Assembly: GCA_040326155.1 (NCBI GenBank)
Contig: JBEQLE010000014.1
Location: 1 to 64,000 of the forward strand
Reading direction: 5' to 3'
Source: Leptospirales bacterium
GTDB taxonomy: Bacteria > Spirochaetota > Leptospiria > Turneriellales > JAOUFE01
Length of the DNA: 64,000 nt
This document shows positions 4,078-61,122 of this stretch, one piece after another. Every line of letters begins with the position of its first letter. Position 1 is the first letter of the stretch. A model generated the notes under the pieces. That model made no database searches and was not told the origin of the DNA. It worked only from the letters and a program-made list of their open reading frames with translations. Both the position numbers and the translations under genes were made by a program.

Positions 4078-4082
4078 ACGAA

Positions 4083-6138: not shown

Positions 6139-6150
6139 ATTGAATAAATA

Positions 6151-7230: not shown

Positions 7231-7298
7231 AAAGGGGGAGAAGTCTCTCCCCTCGCTTTGGCTATTTTGCACAAGGCAAAATGAGCCGCCGCTACCCC
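7231..7298 (-). repeat. Dispersed structured element, copy E1
   Basis: Minus strand: ggggtagc-ggc-ggct-c-attttgc..gcaaaat-agcc-aa-agcgagggg-agagacttct-ccccc-ttt. Confidence 0.6.
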
Positions 7299-35576: not shown

Positions 35577-36137
35577 TTTGAGTTCCTATGTTTACAGTAT
35601 ATACTATGATCTATACCACGTCAATAATTTAATTCAGTTTCGCCACTTCGTCTAATAAAAATGGAACTGCTGCGTCGGTTCTGAAGGCTTTGCTCGGCTT
35701 GCTTGGAATTGTTTTTCTAAATAGGAAGAGTACATTATTTTACCCAATAAAAGAATATCAGGTAAATAATTTCGATCGATTTATTAATAGAATGGAGTAC
35801 TGGTATGTCACCAATAAAGAAGAATTATTAAAGATCGGGCTTGTTTCAGTTTTTTCAGAAAAGATGGATACTCTTTTGAATAGATCGAATTTTTCACGAT
35901 TTTAAGGTGTATCCGATTATAGTGTATCCCAGAATAGGATATTATGCAAAATAAAAGGAAAACCAGCATGTATGTAGATGGATTGGAGGTTATCGGTTTC
36001 ATATTCCGATAATGTATTATATATATGAATTAATGTATAAATTCTGTTAGTAATATTCTTTTGGATTCGTCTATATAAATGATTAGAAATTTTGGATGAT
36101 CAGAAGATGGTTTATGAATATCAATAAGGGGAAAAAG

Positions 36138-39100: not shown

Positions 39101-42100
39101 AAATGTAGATGTACCGTTTACGCTGACCGGAACAGGAGCATTGAATACGGATTATACAATAACCGCGAGCCCTGTAAACATTTCAGCCGGGACATTGACA
39201 AAAGATGTGACGATTACAATTGTTGGCGATGTTCTCGATGAAGATGATGAAACAGCCATTATAACTATGGGTACGGCTACAAATGCGACGGCTTCGGGTA
39301 CGACCGTCCATACGGCAACTATAGTCGATGACGATGCCATGCCGACAGTTTCCATTAACAGTGTTTCTTTAAGTGAAGGCGACGCCGGCACAACCAGCTT
39401 TGTTTTTAATGTTACATTGAGCGCTGTGAGCGGTCGGACCACATCGGTAAAATATGCTACGGCTGATAACACGGCAACGCTTGCAGATACGGACTATGTT
39501 CAAATAACGCCTGCAACGCTATTGAGCTTCACTGCCGGGCAAACTACAAAAACAGTAACTGTCCTTGTAAACGGTGATAGCAATTCAGCAGAAGTCGATG
39601 AAACGTTTAATGTAGATTTAACCGTTCTTACAAATATCAACCCTACGGGAAGTACGGTACAGGGAACCGGAACCATTCTGAATGATGATACGTCTAACTC
39701 TTCGGTCTCTTTTGCGTCGGCGAGTTCCAGCGGTTCTGAGTCCGTGGCGGCACCAACATACGCAGTGAATTTAAGCCCGGCAGCTCCGGTAGGTGGCTTG
39801 ACTGTGTACTACACAATCACTGGAACAGGAACTTACCCTGCGACAAATGGCGGTACCGACTTTACCGGAACGGGTACCCTCTCGGTGATCGTACCGGCAG
39901 GTTTGTCTTCCTATAATATTACAGTTCCCGTAAACAATGACGCCTTAGATGAATTTGACGAAGATTTTACAATTAGTCTTTCTACCGACCCGGATGGGTC
40001 AACCGGTGGTCAGTATAATCTGGGCGCTCAAACAACCCATGGGTATACGATTACGGATAATGACGCAGTTCCACAGGTCTCTTTTCAGGTAAGCTCTACG
40101 GCAACGACCAATGAATCTACGGCATTAAATGTTGTTGTGAACCTTTCGTCGGTTTCTGGCAAAGATGTAACAGTCGACGTAAGTGACACAACCATTGGCG
40201 GTGTTTTATACGCTGTAGCGCCTGGTGATTACTCGTTAACCCGCACAAGCGGTATTCAGTTAACAATCTCTGCGGGCAACCCTTCTGCGAATGTTGTTCT
40301 TACTCCAGTAAATGACTCAACTGACGAGACAAACGGTGGACTTCAGGCAGGAGAGATGGTTACAATGAGCCTTTCGAATCCGGGCAATTCAACTCTGGGT
40401 GCAATTACCTCCCATACTGCTATGATTACGGATGATGACGGACAGCCAAACTTTTCTGTAACGGACGTGAGTGCTTTAGAAGCAACTGGAAGCGTAGATG
40501 TAACGATCACTTGTGTTGCGTTTAGCTGTACAGGCTTCACTGTAGACTATGCAACCGCAAATGGTACGGCTGTTGCAGGAACAGACTATACGGCAACAAG
40601 CGGTACGGCAAGTACCTGGACAGGCAGCGCTCCGAACTGGAGCAAAACAGTTACTATTTCCGTTACAAATGAGAGCCTGGCCGAGTCCGATGAAACTGTC
40701 TTGTTTAACCTTTCTGGAAACTCTGGCAGTTCCATCATTTCAAATGCTACGGCATTTATAACCATCACGAATGATGATACACCCTTAACAATCGCGAATG
40801 CGGATACCCTGGATTGTAACGGTGGTCAAAATGGAAAAATTGATACTTATAGAGTGGAATTAACTGAAGCTGTAACAGACAGTACATTTAATGGATATGC
40901 TTTGGACGCTGAAGGTTCTATAACCGGTAACTGGTTTGTGCTGGGTTATAGCAATGTCAGAATGATTCATGGAGCGGCTTTAAATGGGGAATGTGGAACA
41001 GATACCGAAGATGATACGTTTATCTACCTTCGTTTTGATGAAGGGACGGCTACCGACACAGGCGTTGTTCCCGATTTAACGGCTTCAGCCAGTACAATTT
41101 CGGCTACTTCTGGTCATGGCAAACTTTATTACAATACAGGTAACGTCGCTTCGGGTGATGTTGCCGAAGCTGACTTTGCTGGTCCTTATATCTGGAAAAC
41201 AGAAGCTTTTGATACAGGCGTAAATAACAACTCGGGAAATGCCGGTGCGGCAGATACGCTTATTGTATACTTTACCGAATCAACCAATGCGGCTGCTCTA
41301 AGCGGTGTAGATCTCGATACGATTTTTACACTGGGTGCTGGAAACTTCGCAGCAGACACCGATATTACATCTGCGACATGGTCTACGACAACCAATACGA
41401 ATGATACTTTGACAGTTGTTTTTGCCAACGGTGCGACAACTGTTGCTCCGGCAGTAACAGTTACTCTTATTGGAACTACCGTCACAGACGCCGCAGGTAA
41501 CAATCCCGGTGCCAGCATGCTCTCTGTTCCCTCTATAATTGGGGCTTTTGATACCGGTGAAAAAGGACCAACCGTTGTTTCCGCACAGTACATTGATACG
41601 GATACGAACGGTCGTATCGATCATGTGAAAGTTGATTTTGACCTGAATATACTCGATAGCAGCATTGACGGTTACGTCGATACCAATACTGTGGGGGCGG
41701 CTTCAACCACATGGAACGTAGCCGGTTACACCAACGCTCGAATTGACCCGACTTACTCTGCCGATGTTGACAATGACACAGTTGTCTATTTTCAGTTTGA
41801 TGAAGGTCTCGATTACGACACCGGCGCAAAACCGGATTTAACGGCAACAACAGCGTCGCTTACGGATAATGACGGAATTCAATGTTTTATCAATGAAACA
41901 TTGACTGAGTGTAACGGTGTACGAGCAACAAGCGGTAGCGTAATTACTACTACGGTAAATGAACTTGATGCGGCAAAACCGGTATTTGTTTCTGTAACCG
42001 CGAGAGTTGGCGACAGATACATCTTTGTGAAGTTCAGTGAAAACGTCTGGGGCCAGACCGGAGTTCCGGCTTGCGGTTCCGGCGGGGAACTTTCCAACGA

Positions 42101-44435
42101 TGCGGGAAGTTCAACTTTCGACTTTGCCTATACCGATACCAGCGCTTCTGGAGTTTCGAGTGTGGAATCAGTGGACGGTACGGACAGTTGCGCTTCATCC
42201 GATGCCTTTGTCAGATTGTTTGCCAACGTGGTCTATCTTGATAGCGATATCAGTTCAGATCAACTGAAACCTTATGATGGAAATTCTATATTTGACGCAG
42301 CCGACAATGGTATATCGGCGACTCACGCTGTGACTATACAGCAAACCGTTGCACCATATGTTGTCGCGGCTTCCTCTTTCTACGATGATGGCAGCCAATA
42401 TGGCATAGCCGGTTACTGGTTGCGAATTGTCTATTCTGAGCCAATGTCTTACCAGGGGGCTGTTACAGCGGCCAATTACACACTGGCTGTAGATACGCCG
42501 GGCGCAGTTTGTACCACCATTAACGGAGTACCTCTTTCGATCAGGGCTATTTCGTCCTCGGTTTATGACCTGGAGACAAATACGCAATGTACGGACGCCA
42601 TATACAGTATTACCGCCGGTACGAATATTCTGGATGCTAACGAAATTGAGCCGGTTGGTTCGCCAAATTTTGCCACAGCCAGCGGAACTGACGCCGTCGA
42701 TGCTACCCTGCCTAAACTGCTTCAGGCTCTATCGATCGATTCAACCAGCGTTCAAATTACGTTTAGCGAACCTATGAGTGCCGGCACGGTAACAGATGGA
42801 ACAAACTACTCCATTACGCCTGATCTGGGATCTCCTTTGACGATTACAGCAACCTCCGATCCGTCGGTGTATATTATCTCTCACCCAGATACGCAAACCG
42901 GTACATTTTACACAATTTCGGTGACCGAAGCGACAACGCCGGTTACAGATATTGCAACAAACAGTATACAAGCAGTTCCGGGTAGCCAGGCAACGTTTAG
43001 AGGTCAGGGTTCACCCATTCAAACCATTGAAGATGGACCGTTATTTACAAATCCATTTGCTGATGGTAGTTCCTTCTCGTTTGCATTTGGTTTTAACAAT
43101 AAAATTTACCTTGGACCAAACGATACCGATAGCGGGGCCTTCCGTTTTGAACCGGATGGAGCAAATCCATTAGCTATTTCATTTTATGATACGGTATTTG
43201 CCTTTTCAGCATTTCAAGCGCCGCATACACAGGCCGATGGTATCAGCTTTTTTCAATCTGGCAGTTTAGTTGACCAGGGAGACGCCACTCTAAAAGACTT
43301 TCTCTTCCTTGTTCCGGTGAAAGCTCCGAAAGCAAATTACTTCTGGTTTACCACAGACATTGATAGTCAGTTAGATTTCTACTCTTGTCTTATTGGTACT
43401 TCAGCGAATATGGTGGGTGGCGAATCGATATCAACAACATCCAAGTATATGTATATGGGTATAACTTCAACTGCGAACGGTGGCAAAAGGCCGGTACTGC
43501 AAAGTTATAGTTTTGATATGACTGCCAATACCTGTACTACCGGTAGCTTTCCGCTTACAGATGCGTCAAATATTCCGGCCATTGGTGATAGTGGCGGGAA
43601 TTCGCTTTCTAACGGAAGTCCAATTGGAATTGATATTATCTACGTAGATGGCACAACAATGTACGTCGGTAACAACGGTGGTTTGGCGTGGGCCACAGTA
43701 AACGATGCTACCGCAGAACCAAATGCCGCAGCGGATTTTACAGCAGTCATAGATGATACAGGAGCATCATGTACCACAGGCAATGTTCCCACAGACTGGT
43801 GTGCAGGTTCGAACAGAACTCTGGCGTTAAATTTAACCAGCAAAATACCATCCGGGCGAAAAGGTCTGCCTTTTATGATCACATACAATGATGGGGCGAC
43901 AACAGCGCATTTACTTGCCAGAAACGTAACATCTTCTTTTGGCGGAACCACCAGAACAGGCGGTGAGTTATGGAAATGTACCACAACCTGTACTGACCTT
44001 ACAAACTGGAGCAGAGTATTTACATCTACTACCCAGGGTTCTGGAACCGGAATGGAAACCACGAATAATAAAGCCATATCGATGTTAACCGTGAATGGAG
44101 ATATTCTCTATGTCGGTTTTGACAATGAAGCCGATGGCGCACGGGTTTATTCGACTACAAGTGTTCCAACGGATAAAACCTCATTTACAGAGATTGGACG
44201 TGTCGATGGCGCAACGGCAAACTGCGCGGACCACACCGGCGACACAGGCGGTCTCGGCGGATTTTGTTACGGTTATCAAATGCTTTCGTTTGTGTCCGAA
44301 ACGAAACAAGGTTATAATTATCTCTATATGACAACCGGTTGTAAAGAGCAGAACACTGAGGGTTCCATTTGTGATACAACTGTAGGTGGGAGCTTCGTTG
44401 CTCCGCCAATCAGGGTATTAACCCAGAGAGATTAA
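36138..44435 (+). CDS. Giant Ig-like/Calx-beta surface lipoprotein with Lig-like C-terminus
   Basis: FLVNC lipobox plus Gly/Ser linker; DTTAP Big-type units; D..DE.DET / TITDDD Calx-beta units; C-terminal NPFADGSSFSF..NKIYLGPN, LYVGFDN..GARVY. Confidence 0.85.
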   Translation: MKFTKEVKVIILILGMAFLVNCGGGGGTSGSGGSGSDTTAPDAPSTPDLNTADDLGVSSTDDITALLTGVTFDGTAEADSTVEIYKDGVATGVTGTATGGNYSIDLTLTDGVYAITAIATDSSGNASSESTGLSVTIDSAAPGSYSAGTSGAVNPVLSVASDTGVSSVDGVTNLTTGLVFNGSLGTTNPNAVINLYSGGVLVGTATTDVNGDYSLTTGAVNSGAITFVIMTPSGILSSSFATSVTLGIDVTTPTYTAGVDGAVNPALDSTTDNGISQTDTITNISTGLKFQGSLGLANANEYVEVFVGGTSVGTTQVDASGNYLLGPTVIDAGAGGAVTFVISDEAGNTTGSLASGTITIEKTIPAISSFSSSTGVGIYGIGSSINITVNFTEAVTLSGGGSLDITLNSGAVVSITSIVNTTPASVTYVVAGGDADVNPLDVDSIALTGTLIDEAGNNANTVLPAAPTNKLAAELIEVLTTAPSISTITSTIAPNPYGIGSVIDVTVTFDALVSLSAGSLDLTLDSGGSISIPAASITNTLTATGNYTVAATEDSTDLDVTNIVVNTGALTGDGSGANVGVGLPASNLANNEAIVIDTTAPTLTPVSIVSDNAINSLAKDGDLITVTFTSDEVLTPDPVVTIAGNAATVTDLGGGTSWKAEYTLAGTETEGDVPFNIAFSDVAQTAANAGTPVTVVTDSSSVTYDKTLPTISSSSLDSSNGFIDLTFSEGVYHTGSTPLTATDLTLAFIKDGTGTGSATNVTILSIKKPDSTVNATASALTGSETVVRVFLTVTGTPNGFETIEVLTKDGGSAESVFDHSSNASLVTTTTTAVNLNKASTVDFNVTSSSGSETNADHVVNFQLDLDVSSATPITVNYTISGSGTYPATGGSVDYVNSTSVVILAGNTTYDLPITIKGDTTDEFDETYTITLTTGTGYMLGTNTTYTYTITDDDAAPTVQFTAASQSSADETNSSTLTVTAQLSALSGKNVDVPFTLTGTGALNTDYTITASPVNISAGTLTKDVTITIVGDVLDEDDETAIITMGTATNATASGTTVHTATIVDDDAMPTVSINSVSLSEGDAGTTSFVFNVTLSAVSGRTTSVKYATADNTATLADTDYVQITPATLLSFTAGQTTKTVTVLVNGDSNSAEVDETFNVDLTVLTNINPTGSTVQGTGTILNDDTSNSSVSFASASSSGSESVAAPTYAVNLSPAAPVGGLTVYYTITGTGTYPATNGGTDFTGTGTLSVIVPAGLSSYNITVPVNNDALDEFDEDFTISLSTDPDGSTGGQYNLGAQTTHGYTITDNDAVPQVSFQVSSTATTNESTALNVVVNLSSVSGKDVTVDVSDTTIGGVLYAVAPGDYSLTRTSGIQLTISAGNPSANVVLTPVNDSTDETNGGLQAGEMVTMSLSNPGNSTLGAITSHTAMITDDDGQPNFSVTDVSALEATGSVDVTITCVAFSCTGFTVDYATANGTAVAGTDYTATSGTASTWTGSAPNWSKTVTISVTNESLAESDETVLFNLSGNSGSSIISNATAFITITNDDTPLTIANADTLDCNGGQNGKIDTYRVELTEAVTDSTFNGYALDAEGSITGNWFVLGYSNVRMIHGAALNGECGTDTEDDTFIYLRFDEGTATDTGVVPDLTASASTISATSGHGKLYYNTGNVASGDVAEADFAGPYIWKTEAFDTGVNNNSGNAGAADTLIVYFTESTNAAALSGVDLDTIFTLGAGNFAADTDITSATWSTTTNTNDTLTVVFANGATTVAPAVTVTLIGTTVTDAAGNNPGASMLSVPSIIGAFDTGEKGPTVVSAQYIDTDTNGRIDHVKVDFDLNILDSSIDGYVDTNTVGAASTTWNVAGYTNARIDPTYSADVDNDTVVYFQFDEGLDYDTGAKPDLTATTASLTDNDGIQCFINETLTECNGVRATSGSVITTTVNELDAAKPVFVSVTARVGDRYIFVKFSENVWGQTGVPACGSGGELSNDAGSSTFDFAYTDTSASGVSSVESVDGTDSCASSDAFVRLFANVVYLDSDISSDQLKPYDGNSIFDAADNGISATHAVTIQQTVAPYVVAASSFYDDGSQYGIAGYWLRIVYSEPMSYQGAVTAANYTLAVDTPGAVCTTINGVPLSIRAISSSVYDLETNTQCTDAIYSITAGTNILDANEIEPVGSPNFATASGTDAVDATLPKLLQALSIDSTSVQITFSEPMSAGTVTDGTNYSITPDLGSPLTITATSDPSVYIISHPDTQTGTFYTISVTEATTPVTDIATNSIQAVPGSQATFRGQGSPIQTIEDGPLFTNPFADGSSFSFAFGFNNKIYLGPNDTDSGAFRFEPDGANPLAISFYDTVFAFSAFQAPHTQADGISFFQSGSLVDQGDATLKDFLFLVPVKAPKANYFWFTTDIDSQLDFYSCLIGTSANMVGGESISTTSKYMYMGITSTANGGKRPVLQSYSFDMTANTCTTGSFPLTDASNIPAIGDSGGNSLSNGSPIGIDIIYVDGTTMYVGNNGGLAWATVNDATAEPNAAADFTAVIDDTGASCTTGNVPTDWCAGSNRTLALNLTSKIPSGRKGLPFMITYNDGATTAHLLARNVTSSFGGTTRTGGELWKCTTTCTDLTNWSRVFTSTTQGSGTGMETTNNKAISMLTVNGDILYVGFDNEADGARVYSTTSVPTDKTSFTEIGRVDGATANCADHTGDTGGLGGFCYGYQMLSFVSETKQGYNYLYMTTGCKEQNTEGSICDTTVGGSFVAPPIRVLTQRD

Positions 44436-49100: not shown

Positions 49101-49943
49101 ATGGATATAAGCCTGGCTATCAGTTCTTGTCCAAACGATACATTTTCATTTTATCACTTTATACATGATCCCCAACCCGGATTTAATATTAAACCGGTGC
49201 TGCTTGATATTGAAGAGCTGAACCAGGGAATGTTGCGCGGCGCCTGGGATATTGTAAAAGCATCTTTTCCGGTAGCTGTAAAGGTTCGTGACAAGTATAA
49301 TTTAATGCGCTCGGGCAGCGCGCTCGGTTTTGGCGTCGGTCCAATTTTAATTTATAAAAACCCTGATATTTTAAAAAAGAAAAAATGGCGAGTAGGGTTG
49401 CCGGGTGAAAATACAACGGCTCATTTTTTATGGAACTATTATACGGAACATTCAGGCGAGCTTCAGAATATCGAGTTTGACAAAATACAAATGCACTTTG
49501 CTCTTATTATGGAAAAACTCGAAAGCGGCGAAATTGACGCCGGGGTTGTTATTCACGAAGGGCGTTTTGAGTTTGAAGCCAAAGGTCTAAAACTTTTTAA
49601 AGATTTAGGTGAGTTCTGGGAGAAAACAGCGAAAGCCCCTGTACCGTTGGGCGGAATCTTTATTTCCGGGAAACTTCCCGAATCGGTTAAAAACCAACTG
49701 GAAGAGGCTCTCGAAAAAAGTATAAGCCAGGCGCTCGAAGAAAAAGCTAAAAAAGACCCTGTGTATGAAACCAAGATTTTGCCGTTTATGAAAAAATATT
49801 CGCAGACCTTAGAAAAAGTGTCCATAGAGCGTCATATTGACTATTATGTGAATCGGGAAACGGAATGCATGAGTGAGTGGGGGCATATGGCCGTCGATAA
49901 ATTGTGGGCGCAACTGGAACGTAATTCTAAGCAAGGCAAATGA
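49101..49943 (+). CDS. mqnD: 1,4-dihydroxy-6-naphthoate synthase (futalosine pathway)
   Basis: SCPNDTF, DIEELN, GSALGFGVGP, PGENTTA, GVVIHEGRF, DLGEFWE, PLGG, HIDYYVN. Confidence 0.92.
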   Translation: MDISLAISSCPNDTFSFYHFIHDPQPGFNIKPVLLDIEELNQGMLRGAWDIVKASFPVAVKVRDKYNLMRSGSALGFGVGPILIYKNPDILKKKKWRVGLPGENTTAHFLWNYYTEHSGELQNIEFDKIQMHFALIMEKLESGEIDAGVVIHEGRFEFEAKGLKLFKDLGEFWEKTAKAPVPLGGIFISGKLPESVKNQLEEALEKSISQALEEKAKKDPVYETKILPFMKKYSQTLEKVSIERHIDYYVNRETECMSEWGHMAVDKLWAQLERNSKQGK

Positions 49944-51498: not shown

Positions 51499-54400
51499 CT
51501 ATGGTTCATATATCCACTGTCCGCCGAAAATTCCACCAGAATCAAGGTCATACCACCCTGATTTTGCGGCGTGATTATGGTTGTGACATTTAAGCGAACA
51601 CGTTCCGTCGGTTCTGTTATAGTTTATTAAACCGTTGCTGGCGGTTGTCACATCGGCGGTTCCAAAGGTTATATTTTTCCACCGGTTTACATGTCGGTAG
51701 TTTGCATAATTAATTGTGTCGGAAACCAGATCATCGATGTTACTCGATGTAGTCGTATAATTATGACAATGCACGCATCCGTTTTCGTGTGTATTGCCAG
51801 TGTAATGGTCTTTTGAGCCGGTTGTATTATGCAAAGGCGCCCTGTTTACTCCCCCATTGTTGTGACAGGAAGTGCAGCTTAAAACAGATTTTGATGCGCC
51901 GCCCCATATCGGTGAGGATAAACCGCCGATGTCTGTTAAACTGCCTGTTAAATCCCAGCCATCGCTGTGGCAGTACATGTTGTTGCAACTGCCTTCCTGG
52001 TAGGCACCCGGAGTTCTGGTGGACGAAGCACCGGTGAATGTTGTATAAAAGTTAAAATCGCGAACACCATTTACATGTAGCGCAAAACTCGGAATTTTTA
52101 AACCCGACTCATAAGAACCACCAGTGCCGTTGCCTGTAGATAAAGTTGCATCGTAGGTTCCCTGGTGGCAAAAACCACAGGGATATCTATACCCGTTTCC
52201 AGCCGCGTTGCCGGCGTGTTTGTAATGACTTTCACCCGAGGCATGCCATTTTGTTGCATTGTTTGGTATACCCAGCCCCGCGTTGGCACCGGTGGTTTCT
52301 CCATGGCATGTTCCGCAGGCAGCGGTAGAACCCCAGACGGGAAGATTGGTTGTATTGCCTTCGGGCTGGGCCGTATTCCCGGACGAAGCAAAGTCTCCAT
52401 GGCAGTAAGTATTGGCGCAGGTGTGCGAGACGGTATTGTATGTTGCGACAGTTTGCGGACCCTGGTCCGCTATGGAATTGAAAATAATATCCCGTGAAAA
52501 ATTTACATGAGAGGCAATGTTTAATGTAATGGCCCCGCCTTCTGCGCCGGAAGCTATTCCGCTATGGCAGGTCTGGCAACTGTAATTGTAACCACCCGTA
52601 CCGTTTGTATTTGTATGTACGTCGTGACTTCCAAAATTTGAATTCGTCGGAGATAGATCGTGGCAATCGCCGCAGGCTCCCCCCGTGGTATTGTCCCAGT
52701 CAGAGACGTTCGCTAGGTTTCCCCCTGTAAAATTCCCATGGCAATAAGCGGATGAACAAGTGTGGTTACCATAATTATATACAGCGCTCGGGTTATTCGA
52801 ATCGGGAACAACCGTAAGCGAATTGTCGACATGGCCGGTATCGAGAGTTGCCGTGTCTCCGGAAAAGGTATCGGAATGGCATCGGCGGCAGGGAAAGTCG
52901 TATGTAGTCGTTCCGTTATTACCAATATGCCTCTGGTGAGCCCCCGTAGTTAAAGAAACGGATGTGGCGTCATGACAATCTCCACAGCTGACCGAACCAG
53001 GTCCCCCGCCCTGGGCCACCGTCCAGATGGGATCGTTATTGTTTGCTGAAGTGTTATGTGTAAAACTATTCCAATCACCGGCCCCCGAAGTATTTCCATG
53101 ACAATACAAATTAGAACACTGTTTTGTCCCGATATTAAAACTTCCGTTGGGATTGTTGGCGTTAAAACTTACCAGGTTGTCGGCTCCGCCAATATTTCCG
53201 TTCACATGGCCGGTTGTTGAACCATGGCAGGTTTCACAGGTATAAGAATATGGCGCACTTAAATGTTTTGGATGAGAATCGGTGGCAGGTGGCGCGTTTG
53301 TATGGCAATCGCCGCATTGGGCGGTTGTGTTATCCAGCCAGTCAGGAGATGAATTCAGCCCGGTTACCGAACCTTCAAAGTTACCGTGGCACCAGGAATT
53401 TGAGCATGAAGTGGAACCCGGCGTCCATGTCGTCATCTCTCCGGAAACTCTTGGAACCGAGTAACTGATATCACCGGTTACTGTGGCAAGTGAACCGGAC
53501 GTGTCGGGCGCTTTAAACGAGACGTCGGCGTTTACACCTGAATCGCTTATAGAAAGATTGGCATGATTAGACGTGTTGTATGAGCCTTGCGTGCTGGTAC
53601 TTCCAAACGTATGAACTGAGTCCGCTCCATAGTTATGGCAAGCGTCGCAACTTTCAATTCTGGTTGCATCGTTAAAATACGGACTTGAAGTTGCAGTGTG
53701 ATGCCCATGCGTGGGAGATGAATAATTATTCGCCGGGTTTCCGTGACAAGCGCCGCAGGGTGAGGTCGATGAACTTAACCATGTTGGATTATAACCGTTT
53801 CCCGTTATTGTATTTGGAGTTCCGTTTAATGTGACAGTCGGGAAATTTCCGTGGCAGTAGACATTAGAGCAGGTTTTCGTAAATGAATCGAAAGAAGGAA
53901 GACCGGCCGTATTTAACGGGTGGGTGTAACCAAAATTTACATCTTTAGCAAAATTTACATGGTTTACAGGGGCGCTGGATGTCGTATACCCCTGGTGACA
54001 ATTGCCACACTGTCCGGGGTATTTGCTTAAATGTTCTGAATGTTTAACACTGGTAACATTAACAGTGTGACAACTTCCGCACCAACCGCCATCGAGAGTC
54101 GATTCAGTAGAGCTTACTGTATCGGAATTTCCTTCTGCAAAATTTCCATGACAATATGTATTTGAACAATTTACCGCATTGTATTGACCCGTTCCCGAGT
54201 TAAACGCGCCGCCGGTGGCGCTTCCGGGAGAACCTCCCGTGTAATTAAAAGTTATATCGATTTTACCATCGGCATGGGTAGAAGTTCCCGTCCCGTGTCC
54301 GTCGTGGCATACTGTGCAGGATTCACTTTCTGTATAATTCAAGCCGGTAGAAGGGTTTACAACAGTTAAAAGCATGTCTACATGAGTGCCATGTTTCGTG

Positions 54401-55215
54401 TCGGGAGGCGTTGAGTCTGCCGGGTTTCCGGTACCGCCGGCGTCGCCATGACAAGACGAACTGGTGCAATTTACAACGCCACCCCAGGTTGCCGCTGCGC
54501 TGTTTCCACCCGAAAAATTACCATGGCAGGAGACATCACTGCATGTTCCCCCTGCATATGCAGCAGTCGGGTTATTCGCCGTTATAAAATTAATCATAGC
54601 GGGAGCAGATACGGGAGTATCGAGCCCTGCGTCAGCATGGTTAGGATCGGAGATATAACCGGAATGGCAGTCAAGACAACTTTTATCGGAATGTCCGGTG
54701 TGGCTTCCTGTTAAAAGGGGATCGGGGGCGTTAGGAAATACATTACCGGGTTTGTGACAAAAATTACACCCTGCCGAAGGGTTTGGATCGTACCAGTTGG
54801 CGTCGGAATGGCATGTGGAGTTACTGCACGAGGTGCTGGGCATATCCCAGGCTATTGTGGGATTATCGGTGTAATCGAAAAATACGACGTTATTACTGGT
54901 TTTACTGTTGTTTAAAAAACCGTTTTTGTGCAGTTCATTATCTTCATAACTATTATGGCAAAGGCCGCACTCTAATTTCATGTTTTTAACATGTTGAACA
55001 TGCTTTGGGTCGGACTCCGGATATTCACCATTGATGATCGTTGAGCTGTGGCAGGTTAAATTGCAACTGGAAGAGCTTGCACTCGGTGAGATTCGTAAAT
55101 TAGCGCAAGAGCGGGTAAACAGGGTTGCCATAAGAAAAATTATCGCAAACAGCGCCATTGAAGTATGGGAAAAATTCTCCTGAAGGTACTTGTATTTTTG
55201 CATTTTCCTGCTCAT
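51499..55215 (-). CDS. Giant multihaem c-type cytochrome (CxxxxCH/CxxCH repeat family), probably surface-exposed
   Basis: Manual count 18 CX2CH, 10 CX4CH, 2 CX3CH; N-terminal hydrophobic segment ending FTRSC. Confidence 0.92.
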   Translation of the reverse strand: MSRKMQKYKYLQENFSHTSMALFAIIFLMATLFTRSCANLRISPSASSSSCNLTCHSSTIINGEYPESDPKHVQHVKNMKLECGLCHNSYEDNELHKNGFLNNSKTSNNVVFFDYTDNPTIAWDMPSTSCSNSTCHSDANWYDPNPSAGCNFCHKPGNVFPNAPDPLLTGSHTGHSDKSCLDCHSGYISDPNHADAGLDTPVSAPAMINFITANNPTAAYAGGTCSDVSCHGNFSGGNSAAATWGGVVNCTSSSCHGDAGGTGNPADSTPPDTKHGTHVDMLLTVVNPSTGLNYTESESCTVCHDGHGTGTSTHADGKIDITFNYTGGSPGSATGGAFNSGTGQYNAVNCSNTYCHGNFAEGNSDTVSSTESTLDGGWCGSCHTVNVTSVKHSEHLSKYPGQCGNCHQGYTTSSAPVNHVNFAKDVNFGYTHPLNTAGLPSFDSFTKTCSNVYCHGNFPTVTLNGTPNTITGNGYNPTWLSSSTSPCGACHGNPANNYSSPTHGHHTATSSPYFNDATRIESCDACHNYGADSVHTFGSTSTQGSYNTSNHANLSISDSGVNADVSFKAPDTSGSLATVTGDISYSVPRVSGEMTTWTPGSTSCSNSWCHGNFEGSVTGLNSSPDWLDNTTAQCGDCHTNAPPATDSHPKHLSAPYSYTCETCHGSTTGHVNGNIGGADNLVSFNANNPNGSFNIGTKQCSNLYCHGNTSGAGDWNSFTHNTSANNNDPIWTVAQGGGPGSVSCGDCHDATSVSLTTGAHQRHIGNNGTTTYDFPCRRCHSDTFSGDTATLDTGHVDNSLTVVPDSNNPSAVYNYGNHTCSSAYCHGNFTGGNLANVSDWDNTTGGACGDCHDLSPTNSNFGSHDVHTNTNGTGGYNYSCQTCHSGIASGAEGGAITLNIASHVNFSRDIIFNSIADQGPQTVATYNTVSHTCANTYCHGDFASSGNTAQPEGNTTNLPVWGSTAACGTCHGETTGANAGLGIPNNATKWHASGESHYKHAGNAAGNGYRYPCGFCHQGTYDATLSTGNGTGGSYESGLKIPSFALHVNGVRDFNFYTTFTGASSTRTPGAYQEGSCNNMYCHSDGWDLTGSLTDIGGLSSPIWGGASKSVLSCTSCHNNGGVNRAPLHNTTGSKDHYTGNTHENGCVHCHNYTTTSSNIDDLVSDTINYANYRHVNRWKNITFGTADVTTASNGLINYNRTDGTCSLKCHNHNHAAKSGWYDLDSGGIFGGQWIYEP

Positions 55216-55250
55216 TTCTTTACCGATAAAATATACATATAATCATATAA

Positions 55251-56471
55251 TTACTTTTTTATGTGACAAAAATTACAATCGGTCTTTATATGACATGACC
55301 TGCATTGATTTACACCCATCCTCGCTCTTCTTGCATGAAAATTTTTCGATTGCTTATTAAGCCAACCGGTGGGGTGGGGCGATACAAGAATCGTGTTATT
55401 TCTTTGCGTTACCCCTTTTTCGATATGGCAGTTTGTACAATCGTTGTTGGAATGACAACTTTGACAATTTTTCATGGATACAATTGATTCAAATTTATGA
55501 GTCAATTCATAATTTGGATTATGGGTCGTTATCGGTTTTGACGTACCCTCATGGCAGCTCTGGCAAAAGTTTTCAGTGATATGGCAACTCATGCATTTTT
55601 TGCGATCTTTTGCCGCTTGCGTTTTATGTAATTTAGTCCAATTAAAATCATGGTTTGCCGGTCTCGGTACAGAATCGACATGACACAGGTCGCAACGGTC
55701 CGGGGCGGTAGAGCCATTATGACAGCCCGAACAAAATTGCATGGGCGGCACCATCTCTTTTGCTGTAAAACTATTATTGCTTTTAACGGCTGCATGACAG
55801 GTATCACAACTGAAGCCGAAATTTTTTATATGTTTGGAGTGATTAAATTCATACCTTTGCCGATATCTTTTCAGCTGAACAATTTTCGGGTATTGTTTTT
55901 GATGGCAATTCAGACATAATTTTTTCGATGGGATATCAGGGCCGAACGTTGTGGATTTACTTTCGCCAATTTTAGCGTGGCATAAGGAACATTCAAAATT
56001 CATCTTCTGGTGAGTTTTGTGAGGAAATTGCACTTTCGATTTATGGCATTTTGAACATGTAAAGGGTGCTACTTCATCGTTATGACACTGTTGACAGGTA
56101 TCCATTGCGGGGTATGCATTACCGGCATGATCATTCTTGTAAATATTCGAATGGCATTTTGAACACTCAAGGCCCATTCCGGTTGTATGCAGATTGTGAT
56201 TAAATTCAATATCCATTTTAATGGATGGTTTGGAAAATTTAATCGGCTTTAAAAAAGAAGGATCTTGGTGACACATTATACATGTTTTTGACTTATCGGG
56301 TAAATTGTTGTTTGCACTTTTAGTACTCTCCGGAATGGATGTATGGCACATTACACAATCAAGGCTGTCGTGTTTTTTATGAGAAAATTGAACTTTTGCC
56401 CGAGTATACAATAGTGCTGTAGCGACAAAAAGAAATATAAAAATAAATATGTATGTGGTTTTACGTTTCAA
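55251..56471 (-). CDS. Periplasmic 16-haem cytochrome c (c3/c7-like repeats)
   Basis: Signal peptide; 16 CX2CH by manual count; F.H..H distal-ligand motifs. Confidence 0.92.
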   Translation of the reverse strand: MKRKTTYIFIFIFLFVATALLYTRAKVQFSHKKHDSLDCVMCHTSIPESTKSANNNLPDKSKTCIMCHQDPSFLKPIKFSKPSIKMDIEFNHNLHTTGMGLECSKCHSNIYKNDHAGNAYPAMDTCQQCHNDEVAPFTCSKCHKSKVQFPHKTHQKMNFECSLCHAKIGESKSTTFGPDIPSKKLCLNCHQKQYPKIVQLKRYRQRYEFNHSKHIKNFGFSCDTCHAAVKSNNSFTAKEMVPPMQFCSGCHNGSTAPDRCDLCHVDSVPRPANHDFNWTKLHKTQAAKDRKKCMSCHITENFCQSCHEGTSKPITTHNPNYELTHKFESIVSMKNCQSCHSNNDCTNCHIEKGVTQRNNTILVSPHPTGWLNKQSKNFHARRARMGVNQCRSCHIKTDCNFCHIKK

Positions 56472-57775
56472 AATCGATACCGTCCTTTAATTAAACCTTT
56501 CACATTGTAAACATAACGGGGATTGCTATAATACTCAACTAAAAGAGTAGTATCGAATTTTTTTGAAAACCTTATTTCACCGCCCCCGCTCAGGAAATAA
56601 GCGGTTTTATAACCGGTGTGGTATTCATCAACATTATAATACTCCAGGCCTCCGCCAAGAATTAAAAATAGAAACTTTAAGTCTTTTGTTAACAATAACA
56701 TGTTTCGAAAACGGTTATCAAGCGGGCCGGTAATGTACTCCGTATCGAGACGGACTTTGAAACCGGCCAGCCGGTTATGAATGAGCGATAAAAAAACCGA
56801 ATGGCCGATCTCGCTTTTTTCCGGGGCGTAAAAAATTCCGCCATACCCGGCTTCGACTGAAAAATATTTTGAAAGAAGGTAGAGTAACTTTGCGCGCACC
56901 TCATTATTGGCAAGAGGGGGAAACATGGACCAGTAAGAATCCTGTAAAAACACGGGACGAAAATATTCGTGTTCTAGAAACAAGTGTAACGATTCGGTAA
57001 CAGATATTTGAAAACCCTCGAGAGTCTGGGCCGGCATTAAGTCGATTAAATCAAAAACTCCATAGGCATATGTTTTGAGAATTTTCAGATATGTAACAGT
57101 CTCCAGATCGGCAGAAAGGTAGTGCTCTGCCATTGCTGCGTTGTTTTGCCTGGCCTGCCATTCCAGGTTTAGAATAGCCACTTTTGGAAGTTTATAACTT
57201 ACATCTACGCCTTCAATGTAATCGCCTTCACGCTGAGGAAGAACCATATTTCGATAATCAAGACTGCTTAAAGAAGAAATCTCAGCTTCTTTAAGAATAT
57301 AATCATCGTTTAAAATGTAGCCCCCGTAAATATGGAAATCAAGATTTGCTTTTGGAATTTTAAATTCAAAGGATGCGCCGTCAAAGTAAGTTAATCCCAG
57401 GTTTTGAAAATCAATTAACCTGCCGATTCGCATACCAAAATTATCTGTAAATTGATATTCAAAGTAGCCATAAAACAATTGAACGTCGAGCGGATCCATA
57501 CCTTCAAATGAGTAGGTCTGGTAAGAAATCCTGGTATTTACATTAAAACTTCCTTTGTTTTTTTCCGGATCGTAGATTTTAGCATGGGCATTTTGATGAA
57601 ATATTCCGTTAAAATTCGATTTTGTAAAACCGGGATTTTCGGCGGAGGCTCCATAGAATGTTGTATCTAAACCACCACGCAAGACAGGTTTTGCCCACAG
57701 TATTCCCGTAGAGCCGATATATAAAACAGTTAAAACACCGACAAATAATATTTTATATATATTAAGCATGATCAT
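56468..57775 (-). CDS. Outer-membrane beta-barrel (cytochrome-associated porin candidate)
   Basis: Signal peptide, alternating aromatic strands, MRIGRL, FDGASF, C-terminal KGRYRF; 4-bp overlap with the cytochrome gene. Confidence 0.75.
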   Translation of the reverse strand: MIMLNIYKILFVGVLTVLYIGSTGILWAKPVLRGGLDTTFYGASAENPGFTKSNFNGIFHQNAHAKIYDPEKNKGSFNVNTRISYQTYSFEGMDPLDVQLFYGYFEYQFTDNFGMRIGRLIDFQNLGLTYFDGASFEFKIPKANLDFHIYGGYILNDDYILKEAEISSLSSLDYRNMVLPQREGDYIEGVDVSYKLPKVAILNLEWQARQNNAAMAEHYLSADLETVTYLKILKTYAYGVFDLIDLMPAQTLEGFQISVTESLHLFLEHEYFRPVFLQDSYWSMFPPLANNEVRAKLLYLLSKYFSVEAGYGGIFYAPEKSEIGHSVFLSLIHNRLAGFKVRLDTEYITGPLDNRFRNMLLLTKDLKFLFLILGGGLEYYNVDEYHTGYKTAYFLSGGGEIRFSKKFDTTLLVEYYSNPRYVYNVKGLIKGRYRF

Positions 57776-57874
57776 TATTTATTCAATATCCATGAATCTA
57801 TAACAAGCTGCCAGAGTACGAGTAAAACAGCAACACATTTTTTTAATTGGCTTGGCCGAGGCGCAGCTCTCTAC

Positions 57875-57930
57875 GGAGCAGATTTGTATCTGTCTGTTGG
57901 ATGGCTAATTCAAAAATAAAAAAGATAACT
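57875..57930 (+). repeat. 56-bp direct repeat, right copy
   Basis: ggagcagatttgtatctgtctgttggatggctaattcaaaaataaaaaagataact. Confidence 0.85.
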
Positions 57931-58060
57931 TATGTATTCTTGAAGGCGCGCTTTGGTGTTTAATTTAATAACTTCACCGTCTTTTCATTACCCTTATAAA
58001 ATAGAAGTATAGAATTGTTCTTGTCAAAGTAATACGATATGTCAATAAGCTATTGAAAGT

Positions 58061-59824
58061 ATGGATGGCAAAAATATTATTAAACTTGAAAAGCGTATTG
58101 AATCCATAGAAAAAGAACTTTTGCAAGTCAAATCTGACTTGCATAAAATAAAACCGGGTGTTGCCAAAGCCGATTTGCAGGGGACGGAATCTCGCTCCGA
58201 AGCAAAAGTAAGCCTGGCGGTTAAAGCTGGAAATCTATTTTCGACTACGGAAAATAGAAATAATTTGTTTCACAAAGTTGAAATATTTTTTGGAACGAAC
58301 CTGATTGGAAAACTTGGTTTTCTGGCAATTATACTCTCTTTTGCCTGGTTTATCAAATTGGCGATAGACAAACAATGGCTTAATGAGTCTGCGAGAGTTT
58401 ATATTGGCCTTATTAGTGGCTTTTCTGTTTTAATTACCGGTTTTTTATTTTCTAAAAAAATAAATTCAGCGTTGTCACAACTCAGCCTGGGAACCGGGTT
58501 TGCCATTTTATATCTAAGTATATTCGGGTCTTATTATTATTACAGCCTTCTTGGCTCGCAGGAAACTTTTTTATATCTCTTTTTCTTAATAGCTATTTCA
58601 TCTGCAATTTCCTTGATTGTATCGGGGGAGGTCTTGTATATAATAAGTCTAATTGGTGCTCTAGCTACTCCGGCATTATTGTCGACGGGTGAAAACTCTT
58701 ACCGGCTGTTATTTGCATATATTACTATTATAAATATTTTCTTCTTGTATATAAGCGTATATCGTCCCTGGCGTATTGCTCCGTTTTTTGTATTAGCAGG
58801 GAATTTCCTTGTTTTTTTTGCATGGGGATATACGAATATCGGGGAAAGTGCATTTGTTATTCCTTTTCTATTTGTAACCTCGGTTACCGGTATATTTTTA
58901 ATTCGACAGATTTTTTTACACCCGATGAAAGCAAGATCTTATAAAGTCGATAATGTTGTTTTAAGCGGCCTGAGCGTAGCGTTGTATTACTCGGCAAATA
59001 CATTTTTGTTTTATTATTTCCATACCGATGTTTTTTATCTCTTTTTAATGGGTTTTGCATTAAGTGTATCTTTATTTCAGTACGCACACCAGAAGAATGT
59101 TTTTAAAATTAATAACTTGCCCGATACGACTGTTGTTTACCGGACGTTGCTGATTATCGCATGGTTGAGTCTGGGGCTGGCGGCAATTTTTAATTTTTAT
59201 AATGGCCCCTGGATATTGGCGTTGTCCATATCGATTGTGGGAATAACACTTATTGGAACGGTGAAAATCGGTGTAAAGGGTTTTCCCCATGCAATTTTAC
59301 CTGTTTTAATAGTTATAATTTTACCCATCCTGATTTTTAATTATAATATATATCCGGATAGTCATATGGTTTTATGGAACAGCCGCGCCGCTTTAATGTG
59401 TTTAATGCTGCTTTATCTTTCCGTTGCATTTTACCTTGAACATAAAAAAGAGAAGCGCAAAAAATTTCTTTATATATCGTTAGCGACTGCCTGGACCATT
59501 GTTTTATTGTTTTCTTTTTTTACAGAGGTCAGTGATCTGTTTTCAGATCGCTTGTATCGCAATTTCGGATATTCGGTTGTAATGGTTGTTGCCAGCGCCG
59601 TTTTTTTCGGAATCGCTTTCATGAAAGAAAAGAGAGAGCTTCGAATAGCCGGTCTGGTTCTAGCCATTATTGTAATTGGAAAATTATATTTGTACGATGT
59701 CTGGATATTAAGTAAAGTCATCCGTATAGTATCGTTTTTCCTCTTGGGCGGAGCCATGATATTACTAAGTTTGTTTTACCATAAATATAAAGAAAGGTTA
59801 TCCGGTGAAAAGGAGACAACATAA
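58061..59824 (+). CDS. DUF2339 membrane protein
   Basis: N-terminal coiled coil, E.FFGTNLIGKLG, WFIKLAID..W, LRIAGL.L...IGKLYLYDVW, RIVSFFLLG. Confidence 0.88.
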   Translation: MDGKNIIKLEKRIESIEKELLQVKSDLHKIKPGVAKADLQGTESRSEAKVSLAVKAGNLFSTTENRNNLFHKVEIFFGTNLIGKLGFLAIILSFAWFIKLAIDKQWLNESARVYIGLISGFSVLITGFLFSKKINSALSQLSLGTGFAILYLSIFGSYYYYSLLGSQETFLYLFFLIAISSAISLIVSGEVLYIISLIGALATPALLSTGENSYRLLFAYITIINIFFLYISVYRPWRIAPFFVLAGNFLVFFAWGYTNIGESAFVIPFLFVTSVTGIFLIRQIFLHPMKARSYKVDNVVLSGLSVALYYSANTFLFYYFHTDVFYLFLMGFALSVSLFQYAHQKNVFKINNLPDTTVVYRTLLIIAWLSLGLAAIFNFYNGPWILALSISIVGITLIGTVKIGVKGFPHAILPVLIVIILPILIFNYNIYPDSHMVLWNSRAALMCLMLLYLSVAFYLEHKKEKRKKFLYISLATAWTIVLLFSFFTEVSDLFSDRLYRNFGYSVVMVVASAVFFGIAFMKEKRELRIAGLVLAIIVIGKLYLYDVWILSKVIRIVSFFLLGGAMILLSLFYHKYKERLSGEKETT

Positions 59825-59826
59825 TT

Positions 59827-61122
59827 ATGAAACATAATGGAAGAAAATTATTCTGCATTGTGGGTATTCTATTTTGGGCAACCATAAATTTACCCCTGGC
59901 GGCAAGTGAAGACGGTGTAAAAAATTTCGCGGCCAGTCACTATTTGTATTATAAAGATTTAACAGGTTTATTTAGAAAGCATATTGAATCGCCAAATGGA
60001 CCTGAATATGGAAAATTTTCGTTCGATCAAGAGTTAGTAAAATACAGCCTGGGCAATGATCTTCGAGTTGTTTTTAATGGAAAATCGTTGCCTTATTTTG
60101 TAAGGCTGAGCACCCGAAGTTACGAGAGTGACAAAAAAAAGTGGGTGAAAGTTATTTATTCTAAAAAAGAGAGATTTGGGTCCGTCTACGTTTTGGATTT
60201 AGGTAAACTTAAACCAGGCCAGTGTTATTATGAAATAAATTTGAAAGGTCCGGAATATTATGAAAGCGGAGTTTACTTACAAGCTTCTCATAATGCAAAA
60301 AACTGGACTTCACTCGGTAGCCGGAATATTTTTTCGTATAAAGGGGTAAAGACACAAAGCATCCGTTTAGGGTGTGTGCGCGAACAATATCTTCGAGTTT
60401 CTATTGATTCTGATTCTACATATAAGTTTATAAATGCATTTTATACCACTCCCGATTCTACCTTGAACTATCGTGCTGAAATCAATTTTGCCGACATCAA
60501 AACGGTAAACGATACGGACACTCAATCGATGGAGTATTATATCGAAAACGAGGGTAGAGCCCGCATAAACCAATTGAAGTTATTTTTCAGTGAAAGTAAT
60601 TATAAGAGGCAGTATACCATTCATAAAAAAGACGAATATACTAAGAAATATCGGGAGGTTATATTTGGCGATATTTCTGCCCGAAAAGGGGCCGCCGGCG
60701 AGCAGAAAATTGACCTGCCTAATTCTCTTTCGGGTGCGTTTAAAATTACTATATACTATGGTGATAACGATCCGTTGACAATGAGCAATCTGGAAGCGTA
60801 CGCTGCTCAAGAAGAGGTTGTTTTTGTTTTACCGCGCCCCGAGAATCTACCTGAAAACGGAATTGACACGTTTCGTTTGTACTATGGCAATGCATACGCC
60901 GCTAAACCGGAATACGATATTAACCAGAGTTTCGATGAAACCCTGAAAATTCTACCCATCAAGACTGCCTCACACATCGAAAATCCCGAATTTGGATATT
61001 CGATCGTCTACCCTCCGGTATCCACATGGATTATTAGAGGTATTTTTTATATAGGTACACTTCTTTTACTATTATTATCCATAAAAATCCTACGAAAATA
61101 TTTTGAACCAACGGATAAATAA
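59827..61122 (+). CDS. DUF3999-like exported protein with C-terminal TM anchor
   Basis: Signal peptide, DLRVV..G..LPY, I.YGDNDPL, LYYGN..A.KPEYD; typical DUF2339 partner. Confidence 0.7.
   Translation: MKHNGRKLFCIVGILFWATINLPLAASEDGVKNFAASHYLYYKDLTGLFRKHIESPNGPEYGKFSFDQELVKYSLGNDLRVVFNGKSLPYFVRLSTRSYESDKKKWVKVIYSKKERFGSVYVLDLGKLKPGQCYYEINLKGPEYYESGVYLQASHNAKNWTSLGSRNIFSYKGVKTQSIRLGCVREQYLRVSIDSDSTYKFINAFYTTPDSTLNYRAEINFADIKTVNDTDTQSMEYYIENEGRARINQLKLFFSESNYKRQYTIHKKDEYTKKYREVIFGDISARKGAAGEQKIDLPNSLSGAFKITIYYGDNDPLTMSNLEAYAAQEEVVFVLPRPENLPENGIDTFRLYYGNAYAAKPEYDINQSFDETLKILPIKTASHIENPEFGYSIVYPPVSTWIIRGIFYIGTLLLLLLSIKILRKYFEPTDK

Follow-up and report, generated by a model that had tools for sequence, protein, structure and literature searches.

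A probable porin-cytochrome conduit with a new type of outer-membrane barrel in a Leptospirales bacterium

Can a spirochaete pass electrons through its outer membrane? Spirochaetes are abundant in sediments, digesters, and anode biofilms, and they are regarded as fermenters. The question is raised by three adjacent genes of a Leptospirales bacterium, which encode an outer-membrane barrel, a cytochrome with 16 haems, and a larger cytochrome with 30 haem motifs. They lie in a stretch of 64,000 nucleotides (hereafter the window), which corresponds to positions 1–64000 of a 69.7-kb contig (C55; JBEQLE010000014.1) in the assembly GCA_040326155.1. The genome is 4.26 Mb in 171 contigs, with an estimated completeness of 94.66% and contamination of 1.71%. 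The three genes probably (roughly 0.65) encode a trans-outer-membrane porin-cytochrome conduit, similar to the Pcc conduits of Geobacter and built on a new barrel family. Its localization, threading, docking, direction, and substrate are what we infer from the evidence below.

For an anode-enriched Leptonema genome, the genomic evidence for extracellular electron transfer has been called “scarce” (PMC8258643). In digesters, Spirochaetota that degrade fatty acids express multihaem cytochromes (PMC7382037), and Spirochaetota are enriched in iron-oxide and electrode incubations (PMC13374861), according to the available parts of these papers. No description of a porin-cytochrome cluster in spirochaetes was found in the full text of open-access PMC and bioRxiv, supplements aside. 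An initial annotation of this DNA supposed that the system might be undescribed, and no account of the operon was found in the same literature. This kind of conduit itself is known; what is new here is the barrel family, the phylum, and the stepwise, modular wire.

The three genes and their products

On the minus strand, three co-directional open reading frames (ORFs), all intact, occupy 57775..56468, 56471..55251, and 55215..51499. All parts of these genes mentioned below are on the same strand. The first ORF (56468..57775) encodes an outer-membrane barrel (“porin”) of 435 aa with a signal peptide, the C-terminus ...GRYRF, and no Cys. The second (55251..56471) encodes a periplasmic 16-haem c-type cytochrome of 406 aa with a Sec-type signal and c7-type modules. 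The third (51499..55215) encodes a probable surface lipoprotein cytochrome of 1238 aa with 30 haem motifs. The periplasmic and outer placements of the two cytochromes are derived from their signal sequences. The barrel gene ends with ...CGA TTT TGA, and its TGA stop codon and the TTG start codon of the 16-haem gene share TTGA. As judged from the sequence, this 4-nt overlap is of the kind associated with translational coupling. The 30-haem gene begins 35 nt after the 16-haem gene, assuming the first ATG as its start. The initial annotation had described three tightly linked, co-oriented genes at these coordinates with 16 CxxCH motifs, about 30 haem motifs, and a 4-bp overlap. The arrangement was borne out, on the minus strand, and a scripted motif count returned the same values (16; 30; TTGA).

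The barrel contains 0 Cys and 0 haem motifs in the scripted count. The AlphaFold2 model, based on a 15-sequence alignment, has a mean pLDDT of 83.2 and a pTM of 0.71. It shows 22 strands, no plug, and no other domain, in agreement with the initial call of a beta-barrel. When the model was searched against structure representatives, the best matches were 22-stranded TonB-dependent transporter barrels with Z of 17–19.6. They include SusC-like 5t3r_D (Z 19.6, root-mean-square deviation 4.1, 362 residues aligned) and BtuB (Z 17.5). MtrB of the Shewanella Mtr complex (6r2q_B) is at rank 27, under many unrelated barrels (Z 14.7, root-mean-square deviation 6.8, 342 residues aligned). Foldseek against PDB returned generic barrels alone (ushers, AlgE, and porins), with E-values of 1e-10 and weaker. 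For the predicted structure, these matches say “large barrel” and nothing on function. The strand number is that of transporter barrels whose lumen normally encloses a plug domain.

Based on DSSP of the model, the inter-strand segments of the barrel are all 9 residues or shorter, save two. Being plugless, 22-stranded, and almost loop-free, the barrel would leave the outer membrane wide open if nothing occupied it. Residues 155–185 (57221..57313) are the longest non-strand segment and would correspond to extracellular loop 4. Residues 273–289 (56909..56959), which contain P274, F276, S280, and F285, form the other long loop, and no segment is better conserved in the family. By the usual topology convention, which puts the N-terminus in the periplasm, both segments of the model would be extracellular loops. 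Among 11 orthologues, the mean identity to the reference is 0.46 for residues 155–185 and 0.61 for residues 273–289, compared with 0.38 for the whole barrel. P274, S280, and F285 are invariant and F276 is nearly so in the 15-sequence alignment, which includes distant members. Residues 155–185 show many invariant columns in the pairwise alignment of the barrel with a relative, P0002.

The barrel matches no Pfam or NCBIfam model at E <= 0.1. A search of PDB sequences with the barrel profile gave one match only, at chance level (E 0.51). In ESM Atlas, unnamed clusters from Thermodesulfobacteriota, Myxococcota, and Zixibacteria resemble the barrel (feature score 0.98, TM 0.83–0.88). These modelled look-alikes are a lead only, and they hint at a structural kinship with the Pcc-type porins of those phyla.

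The 406-aa protein has 16 CxxCH motifs and 32 Cys, or 25 residues per haem. It scores 84.4 bits with PF14522 (cut-off 24.8) and 53.5 bits with TIGR04257 (cut-off 40), models of c7-/c3-type modules, and it is thus a member of these families, with tandem c7-type haem domains above the curated cut-offs. When a profile of the protein and its relatives was compared with solved structures, the dodecahaem cytochrome GSU1996 (3ov0) came first at 1.5e-22. Further matches are alternative complex III subunit A, MtrF, 16-haem HmcA proteins, and MtrA (6r2q_A) at 4e-7.

Residues 26–143 and 144–270 of the 16-haem protein are 35% identical to each other (E 2e-20). Based on this internal 5-haem duplication, the protein is composed of two 5-haem modules and a C-terminal 6-haem module. 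The first 5-haem module (residues 26–143, 56043..56396) is not seen in the 11-haem orthologues. The second (residues 144–270, 55662..56042) is the start of the core common to all orthologues. The 6-haem module (residues 271–406, 55254..55661) is present in every orthologue and would sit inside the barrel. In the alignment of orthologues, coverage extends to residue 404, and invariant CxxCH columns are at 293–403. Eleven loci, the window and ten others, were compared. The haem number of the intact orthologues is only 11, 16, or 21, seen in three, four, and three of the ten, respectively. The 11-haem orthologues are aligned with residues 144–404 of the protein in the window. This indicates that the conserved core is one 5-haem module with the C-terminal 6-haem module, and that the extra modules have been added N-terminally. 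One genome, G330 (L032 9996-10872), encodes the periplasmic cytochrome orthologue in two pieces, as overlapping ORFs for 5 and 6 haems, due to either a frameshift or a sequencing error. In G087 and G098 (L035 11411-12112 and L038 11481-12218), an extra 8-haem cytochrome of 233–245 aa is encoded downstream of the periplasmic cytochrome.

The 1238-aa protein contains 18 CxxCH, 2 CxxxCH, and 10 CxxxxCH, which make 30 haem motifs. They fall in about ten three-haem units of CxxCH, CxxCH, and CxxxxCH. Ser, Thr, Gly, and Asn account for 45% of the residues, and there are 41 residues per haem. TIGR01904, the CxxxxCH/CxxCH domain defined on Geobacter proteins, is matched in 9 stretches with a score of 195.9 bits (cut-off 27). 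For PF09698, 7 stretches match and the score is 58.5 bits (cut-off 21.7), and the protein thus belongs to the CxxxxCH/CxxCH-domain proteins. PF14522 scores 59.8 bits (cut-off 24.8). The Pfam model of MtrC/MtrF domain II/IV scores 56.6 bits (cut-off 30), as a generic haem-packing domain only. A search of PDB sequences found no relative of the protein. Since the Pfam and NCBIfam scores are well over the curated cut-offs, the haem density of both cytochromes is not due to chance.

Residues of about 20–190 of the 30-haem protein (54646..55158) include the signal peptide, Cys37 at a lipobox-like position, and the module common to the smaller orthologues. The BLASTP matches of orthologues land in residues 5–357. 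A Cys follows a hydrophobic stretch in 11 of 11 N-termini, and 10 of these have a canonical-looking lipobox. The ten orthologous N-termini show LILSC, FTGC, LLGC, YSGC, MSAC, ITAC, INAC, LSGC, and similar sequences at this position. Given the lipobox Cys in these ten, the 30-haem protein is a probable lipoprotein. The outer component varies in size among the loci, from 139 aa with 3 motifs up to 1070 aa with 32 motifs. The largest of these, from G087, is 45% identical to the 30-haem protein over residues 66–676. Common to all versions are the signal, the lipobox Cys, and the first CxxxxCH/CxxCH module.

Whether the barrel and the 16-haem cytochrome form a complex was evaluated by structure prediction with barrel residues 29–435 and cytochrome residues 25–406, using custom alignments. 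The scores are 0.37, 0.54, and 0.38 (median 0.38), compared with 0.00 for the best of three controls, which supports the pairing weakly. The mark is reached by 116 of 157 solved complexes and by 2 of 215 mismatches, and these counts hold roughly with custom alignments. At scores of 0.60 or below, the mark is reached by 18 of the 157 solved complexes and by both of the passing mismatches. Agreement among the runs is 50% of contacts or more, with a partner pLDDT of 66 or higher. Because a similar complex, MtrAB (6R2Q), has been solved, resemblance to it may contribute to the pass. In the initial annotation, the cytochrome was expected to thread the lumen of the barrel; the prediction, which returned no contacts, weakly upholds the pairing only.

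Distribution and inheritance of the module

A full HMMER pass over 1.84 billion representative proteins found 24 members of the barrel family at E <= 0.001, 17 at 1e-10, and 8 at 1e-30. A word-seeded search of 5.8 billion proteins found two at E <= 0.001 among 4974 candidates: the barrel itself and one protein at 32% identity. Every named homologue is either “Spirochaetota bacterium” or “Spirochaetia bacterium”, with organism names attached to 2 of 10 family members in one look-up and to none of 8 distant matches. Among close relatives, the barrel is present in 3 of 41 genomes, including the genome under study (G000). The other two are the two genomes of family f7 in the same order (2/2). None of the three other members of the family of G000 has it. 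In an even sample of the phylum, 14 of 401 genomes have the barrel; 12 of them belong to family f38 and one to f9. The 16-haem protein (E <= 1e-20) is found in exactly the same three of the 41 genomes as the barrel.

An orthologue of the 16-haem cytochrome is encoded directly after the barrel gene on the same strand in all 11 loci. An outer cytochrome with the shared N-terminal module adjoins this pair in 9 of the 11. This outer cytochrome is encoded upstream of the pair in six loci, all from f38, and downstream in the other three, which are the window and both f7 loci. At the locus from a single-cell genome (L005), the outer cytochrome is 2.4 kb away, and ccmABCEF are located beside the module. 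In the f7 loci (L009 3649-5129 and L010 2880-5268), two or three small signal-peptide proteins that match no family are encoded downstream of the outer cytochrome.

Maximum-likelihood trees were built from 11 barrels and from 10 intact cytochromes, excluding the split cytochrome of G330. Both give (G000,(G009,G013)) against f38 and the single-cell genome, with supports of 98/98 and 95/95. This agreement indicates that the genes for the barrel and the cytochrome have travelled together. Within the order of G000, the module follows taxonomy. This argues against a recent foreign insertion despite the patchy distribution.

The genome itself is that of a member of Spirochaetota. FlaA, the spirochaete flagellar sheath protein, has three matches over the cut-off, and none in 14 control genomes. 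The initial annotation called the neighbouring genes Leptospirales-like. FlaA and the named homologues support this only at the level of Spirochaetota, and a kinship table puts the genome in one class with some reference genomes (family f8). In a search with HflX, the matches that carried organism names came from unrelated phyla at 55–60% identity and did not inform the placement.

A genome-wide scan found 11 ORFs with at least three haem motifs. Cytochrome c maturation system I is encoded: CcmF (704 aa, with the CcmF_C domain) adjoins CcmE on contig C127, and CcmC is on C113. ResB (PF05140) of system II has no match in this genome of 94.66% estimated completeness. Three matches to haem-copper oxidases score 445, 171, and 64 bits. 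Genes for alternative complex III are seen on C127 at 1610-7744 (L015), coding for a monohaem cytochrome c besides pentahaem ActA, ActB, NrfD-type ActC, and ActD. On C163 at 569-4086 (L013), genes for a Rieske/cytochrome b complex are found together with those for two cytochromes, one octahaem and one monohaem. As annotated, these two complexes are candidate links between the quinone pool and the periplasm. The initial annotation saw neither a quinol dehydrogenase nor a Ccm gene in the window; this is true of its annotated parts, and both are encoded elsewhere in the genome. A gene of the futalosine pathway for menaquinone (PF02621, 161.6 bits) is in the window at 49101-49943 on the plus strand, 1.5 kb from the operon and next to ribulose-phosphate 3-epimerase.

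Genes of the dissimilatory sulfite reductase (Dsr) system are on C164 (1550-3784) and C101 (L020, 288-6210). DsrA is matched at 510 bits against a cut-off of 392.85, the match containing one in-frame TGA, and a DsrB-like ORF adjoins it. A DsrC-like ORF is followed by DsrMKJOP-like genes.

Known conduits and competing explanations

The Pcc conduits of Geobacter (Shi et al. 2014, available part of PMC4245776; Liu et al. 2015, PMC4589669) consist of the same three parts: a barrel, a periplasmic multihaem cytochrome, and an outer lipoprotein multihaem cytochrome. The gene order of the module is that of ombB-omaB-omcB in Geobacter. Pcc porins are predicted to have 18–22 strands in the available text of PMC4245776, and the 22 strands of the AlphaFold2 model are inside this range. 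Shi et al. recognized members by sequence similarity to OmbB, OmaB, and OmcB (BLAST E < 0.01); here the barrel is likened to the Pcc porins by architecture and strand number. The outer cytochrome carries the Geobacter-defined TIGR01904 domain, and the periplasmic cytochrome is made of c7-type modules, like the Geobacter dodecahaem GSU1996. The haem numbers are higher: 16 (11–21 in orthologues) and 30 here, against 5–14 in the periplasmic and 12 in the outer cytochromes of Geobacter Pcc. The barrel family also differs, having 24 relatives, the named ones all Spirochaetota, and no match to a curated family. Unlike in Geobacter Pcc, no orfR-type regulator gene is located beside the module. The 2014 survey of Pcc names six phyla, Spirochaetota not among them, and “spirochaet” occurs 0 times in its text (PMC4245776).

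In haem number, the module resembles PCC3 (He et al. 2017), reported from Sideroxydans, Leptothrix, and other Proteobacteria and found in Fe(II) oxidizers. According to the available part of PMC5566968, the extracellular cytochrome of PCC3 has a median of 34 haems in a repetitive sequence with abundant Thr, Ser, Ala, and Gly, and the periplasmic one has a median of 21 haems. Here, too, a porin is combined with cytochromes of very high haem number (16, or 21 in three orthologues, and 30), and the outer one is repetitive and rich in small residues. The likeness is one of haem numbers and composition. Also conserved in PCC3 clusters is a membrane protein of about 300 aa that has five helices, two WX3HX13H motifs, and SGxxG (same part of PMC5566968); such a protein is neither in this operon nor flanking it. 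The initial annotation recognized the architecture of MtrCAB and Pcc. That the cluster is of the conduit type with three parts is upheld, and PCC3, as far as the available text of PMC5566968 goes, is a further precedent that it did not mention.

The principle of MtrCAB and of MtoAB/PioAB is shared: a cytochrome wire sheathed by a barrel, and a lipoprotein cytochrome on the surface. By family models, the two cytochromes here are not members of the Mtr families. The MtrA/DmsE model TIGR03508 scores 26.4 bits against a cut-off of 192.2, with 16 haems instead of ten, and the OmcA/MtrC model TIGR03507 scores 20.3–21.1 bits against a cut-off of 209.3. MtrB in 6R2Q has 26 strands. The barrel here has 22 strands, compared with 28 predicted for MtrB by Shi et al. 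(available part of PMC4245776).

Based on these comparisons, the conduit could work as follows. The barrel would sheathe and insulate the wire where it crosses the outer membrane. Following export of the 16-haem cytochrome to the periplasm, its conserved C-terminal 11-haem core would be inserted in the barrel, as MtrA is in MtrB, and its extra N-terminal 5-haem module would reach into the periplasm. The 30-haem lipoprotein would be on the cell surface, with its N-terminal CxxxxCH/CxxCH module docked either on the two conserved loops of the barrel or on the haem wire where it emerges. The ten three-haem units of this lipoprotein could make up a large redox-active surface or serve as a short wire. 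Such a conduit would let periplasmic carriers exchange electrons with extracellular partners unable to pass the membrane, namely Fe(III) or Mn(IV) minerals, humics, electrodes, or partner cells. Alternative complex III or the Rieske/cytochrome b-octahaem complex could supply the periplasmic carriers with electrons from the menaquinone pool. The conduit interpretation of the initial annotation is thus supported: the first protein is predicted to fold as a barrel, Ccm genes are present in the genome, and no earlier description was found. Further support comes from the three-part gene order kept among the loci, the strict joint occurrence of barrel and cytochrome, and the agreement of their trees.

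Several points weigh against such a conduit. The barrel shows no sequence-detectable relation to any characterized conduit porin, and its role is therefore deduced from its fold, size, and genomic setting. The prediction of the complex is a weak pass only and returned no contacts. AlphaFold2 modelled the 16-haem protein poorly from 12 aligned sequences (pLDDT 55.8, pTM 0.37), and this model was set aside because its quality allowed neither a fold search nor an assessment of shape and length. The lipobox in the window, LFTRSC, is atypical. The true start of the 30-haem gene is uncertain because two later in-frame ATGs exist. No outer cytochrome was detected in the 19 kb examined in G098, one of the 11 loci. 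The three closest relatives in the same family are without the module, which makes the module accessory. The operon contains no quinol dehydrogenase gene, and in the genome search the best match to the NapC/NirT/CymA family, at 20.4 bits, is under the cut-off of 24.1.

The same conduit could also run inward. Electrons from Fe(II), Mn(II), reduced minerals, a cathode, or a partner cell would then be passed to periplasmic carriers and on to haem-copper oxidases, and alternative complex III or the bc complex would be reversed for reducing power. Inward flow has reportedly been proposed for MtoAB, PioAB, and PCC3. The three haem-copper oxidase matches, alternative complex III, and Rieske/cytochrome b are the kit of micro-aerobic lithotrophs. 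The closest published cluster by haem number is PCC3 (34/21 median), which comes from Fe(II) oxidizers (available part of PMC5566968), and some orthologues carry exactly 21 haems in the periplasmic protein. However, cytochromes of the TIGR01904 type were defined on Geobacter, a reducer, and the operon is without the PCC3-type membrane protein. Nothing positive for lithotrophy was seen, and Cyc2, carbon fixation, and other markers of Fe(II) oxidizers were not searched for. Direction is not readable from sequence. Outward flow, or reduction, is considered somewhat more likely, and inward flow rather unlikely.

It can be speculated that the conduit belongs to a family specific to Spirochaetota, with an independently evolved barrel and a wire lengthened by five haems at a time (11, 16, 21) to bridge the unusually wide periplasm of spirochaetes, which contains flagella. 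Such a conduit might couple the oxidation of sulfide, sulfur, or organic compounds to the reduction of extracellular Fe(III)/Mn(IV) or to direct transfer to partner cells. Taken as a whole, this scenario is doubtful. Oxidative Dsr has lately been reported in Leptospirae genomes (PMC12687941), and the Dsr genes of this genome together with that report suggest a possible link to sulfide-oxidizing iron respiration (PMC12545173). If the sulfur-coupled, Spirochaetota-specific scenario were true, free-living spirochaetes would be unrecognized players in mineral and interspecies electron flow.

Alternatively, the barrel might not sheathe a wire at all and might be a channel for soluble or colloidal substrates, for instance polysulfide, sulfur, selenite/tellurite, or chelated metals. 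Both cytochromes would then be on the periplasmic side as a reductase, an oxidase, or an electron store, a role reportedly considered for the Geobacter ExtI porin, which is linked to selenite/tellurite reduction in the available part of PMC5877670. The likeness of the barrel to transporters and porins is generic only, lipoproteins can face the periplasm, and the genome carries Dsr sulfur metabolism (DsrA at 510 bits, DsrMKJOP, and DsrC), all of which would suit a channel. A plugless, near loop-free barrel of 22 strands would be a large open leak unless filled, however, and no catalytic subunit is encoded in the cluster. The strict pairing, the co-phylogeny, and the 4-nt overlap of the barrel with one cytochrome are the pattern of physical partners. 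Furthermore, 30 haems on a repetitive protein rich in Ser, Thr, Gly, and Asn are typical of surface cytochromes (PMC5566968, in its available part). A channel is therefore improbable.

A binning or assembly artefact, or a recent foreign insertion unused by the organism, is very improbable: the stretch at 52–54 kb has a G+C content of 0.488 against 0.396 in the genome and the module is patchy among relatives, but the operon is in the middle of a 69.7-kb contig whose G+C content (0.397) is that of the genome, the region of the barrel gene is typical (0.375), the high G+C content of the third gene fits its composition rich in Gly, Ala, Ser, Thr, Cys, and His, in both trees the sequences nearest to those of G000 come from its own taxonomic order, none of the three ORFs is disrupted, and the contamination estimate is 1.71%.

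If the three genes do encode a porin-cytochrome conduit, marker-gene surveys based on the porin models of Shewanella and Geobacter (e.g., PMC7399161) would probably miss it, since the barrel has no sequence match in Pfam, NCBIfam, or PDB. An alignment of the barrel family would make the organisms that carry it findable. The series of 11, 16, and 21 haems is a natural experiment on wire length versus envelope dimensions.

Other features of the genome and the window

A second porin-cytochrome-like cluster is located on C167 (L011) at 6055-10280. Its members include a lipoprotein cytochrome of 250 aa with nine motifs and a membrane-anchored 12-haem cytochrome. It also encodes a 436-aa protein, P0078, which matches no family. 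The ESM Atlas model of P0078 (pTM 0.66) resembles the same unnamed cluster of 404-aa barrels from Thermodesulfobacteriota as the barrel in the window. P0078 was considered as a homologue of that barrel and not accepted, as hhalign against the barrel family (probability 10.5%, E 0.003) does not establish homology. When used as a query, P0078 found no relative in 400 other Spirochaetota genomes. A membrane protein of 258 aa is encoded in the cluster as well; with its four predicted helices and single HX13H and SGxxG motifs, it is reminiscent of the membrane protein of PCC3/PCC4.

Upstream of the barrel gene in the window is a divergent intergenic region of 285 bp (57776..58060), the presumed promoter region. 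Its minus strand matches TTGACA-18-TATTTT once, at 58027-57998. Promoter-like sites are no more frequent here than in shuffled sequences (26 vs 19.3 +/- 4.3), and neither are terminator-like sites (9 vs 8.1 +/- 3.1).

On the other side of this region, at 58061-61122 on the plus strand, two proteins are encoded divergently from the operon: a membrane protein of 587 aa with DUF2339, and a protein of 431 aa that has a signal peptide and only a sub-threshold match to DUF2341. This pair is not kept beside the module elsewhere, where a TPR protein or unrelated genes are found. The operon is flanked on the side away from the DUF2339 gene by a convergent, lipoprotein-like ORF of 201 aa.

Three large proteins are encoded elsewhere in the window, all on the plus strand. 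The one at 7800-10835 is a 1011-aa protein with an HD-CE domain (155.5 bits), and that at 26459-30460 is a 1333-aa protein with DUF4382; both are otherwise unannotated. The third is a 2779-aa ORF at 36096-44435 with Calx-beta and Big_13 domains and a G+C content of 0.46–0.47 vs 0.40. It probably encodes a giant, adhesin-like surface protein.

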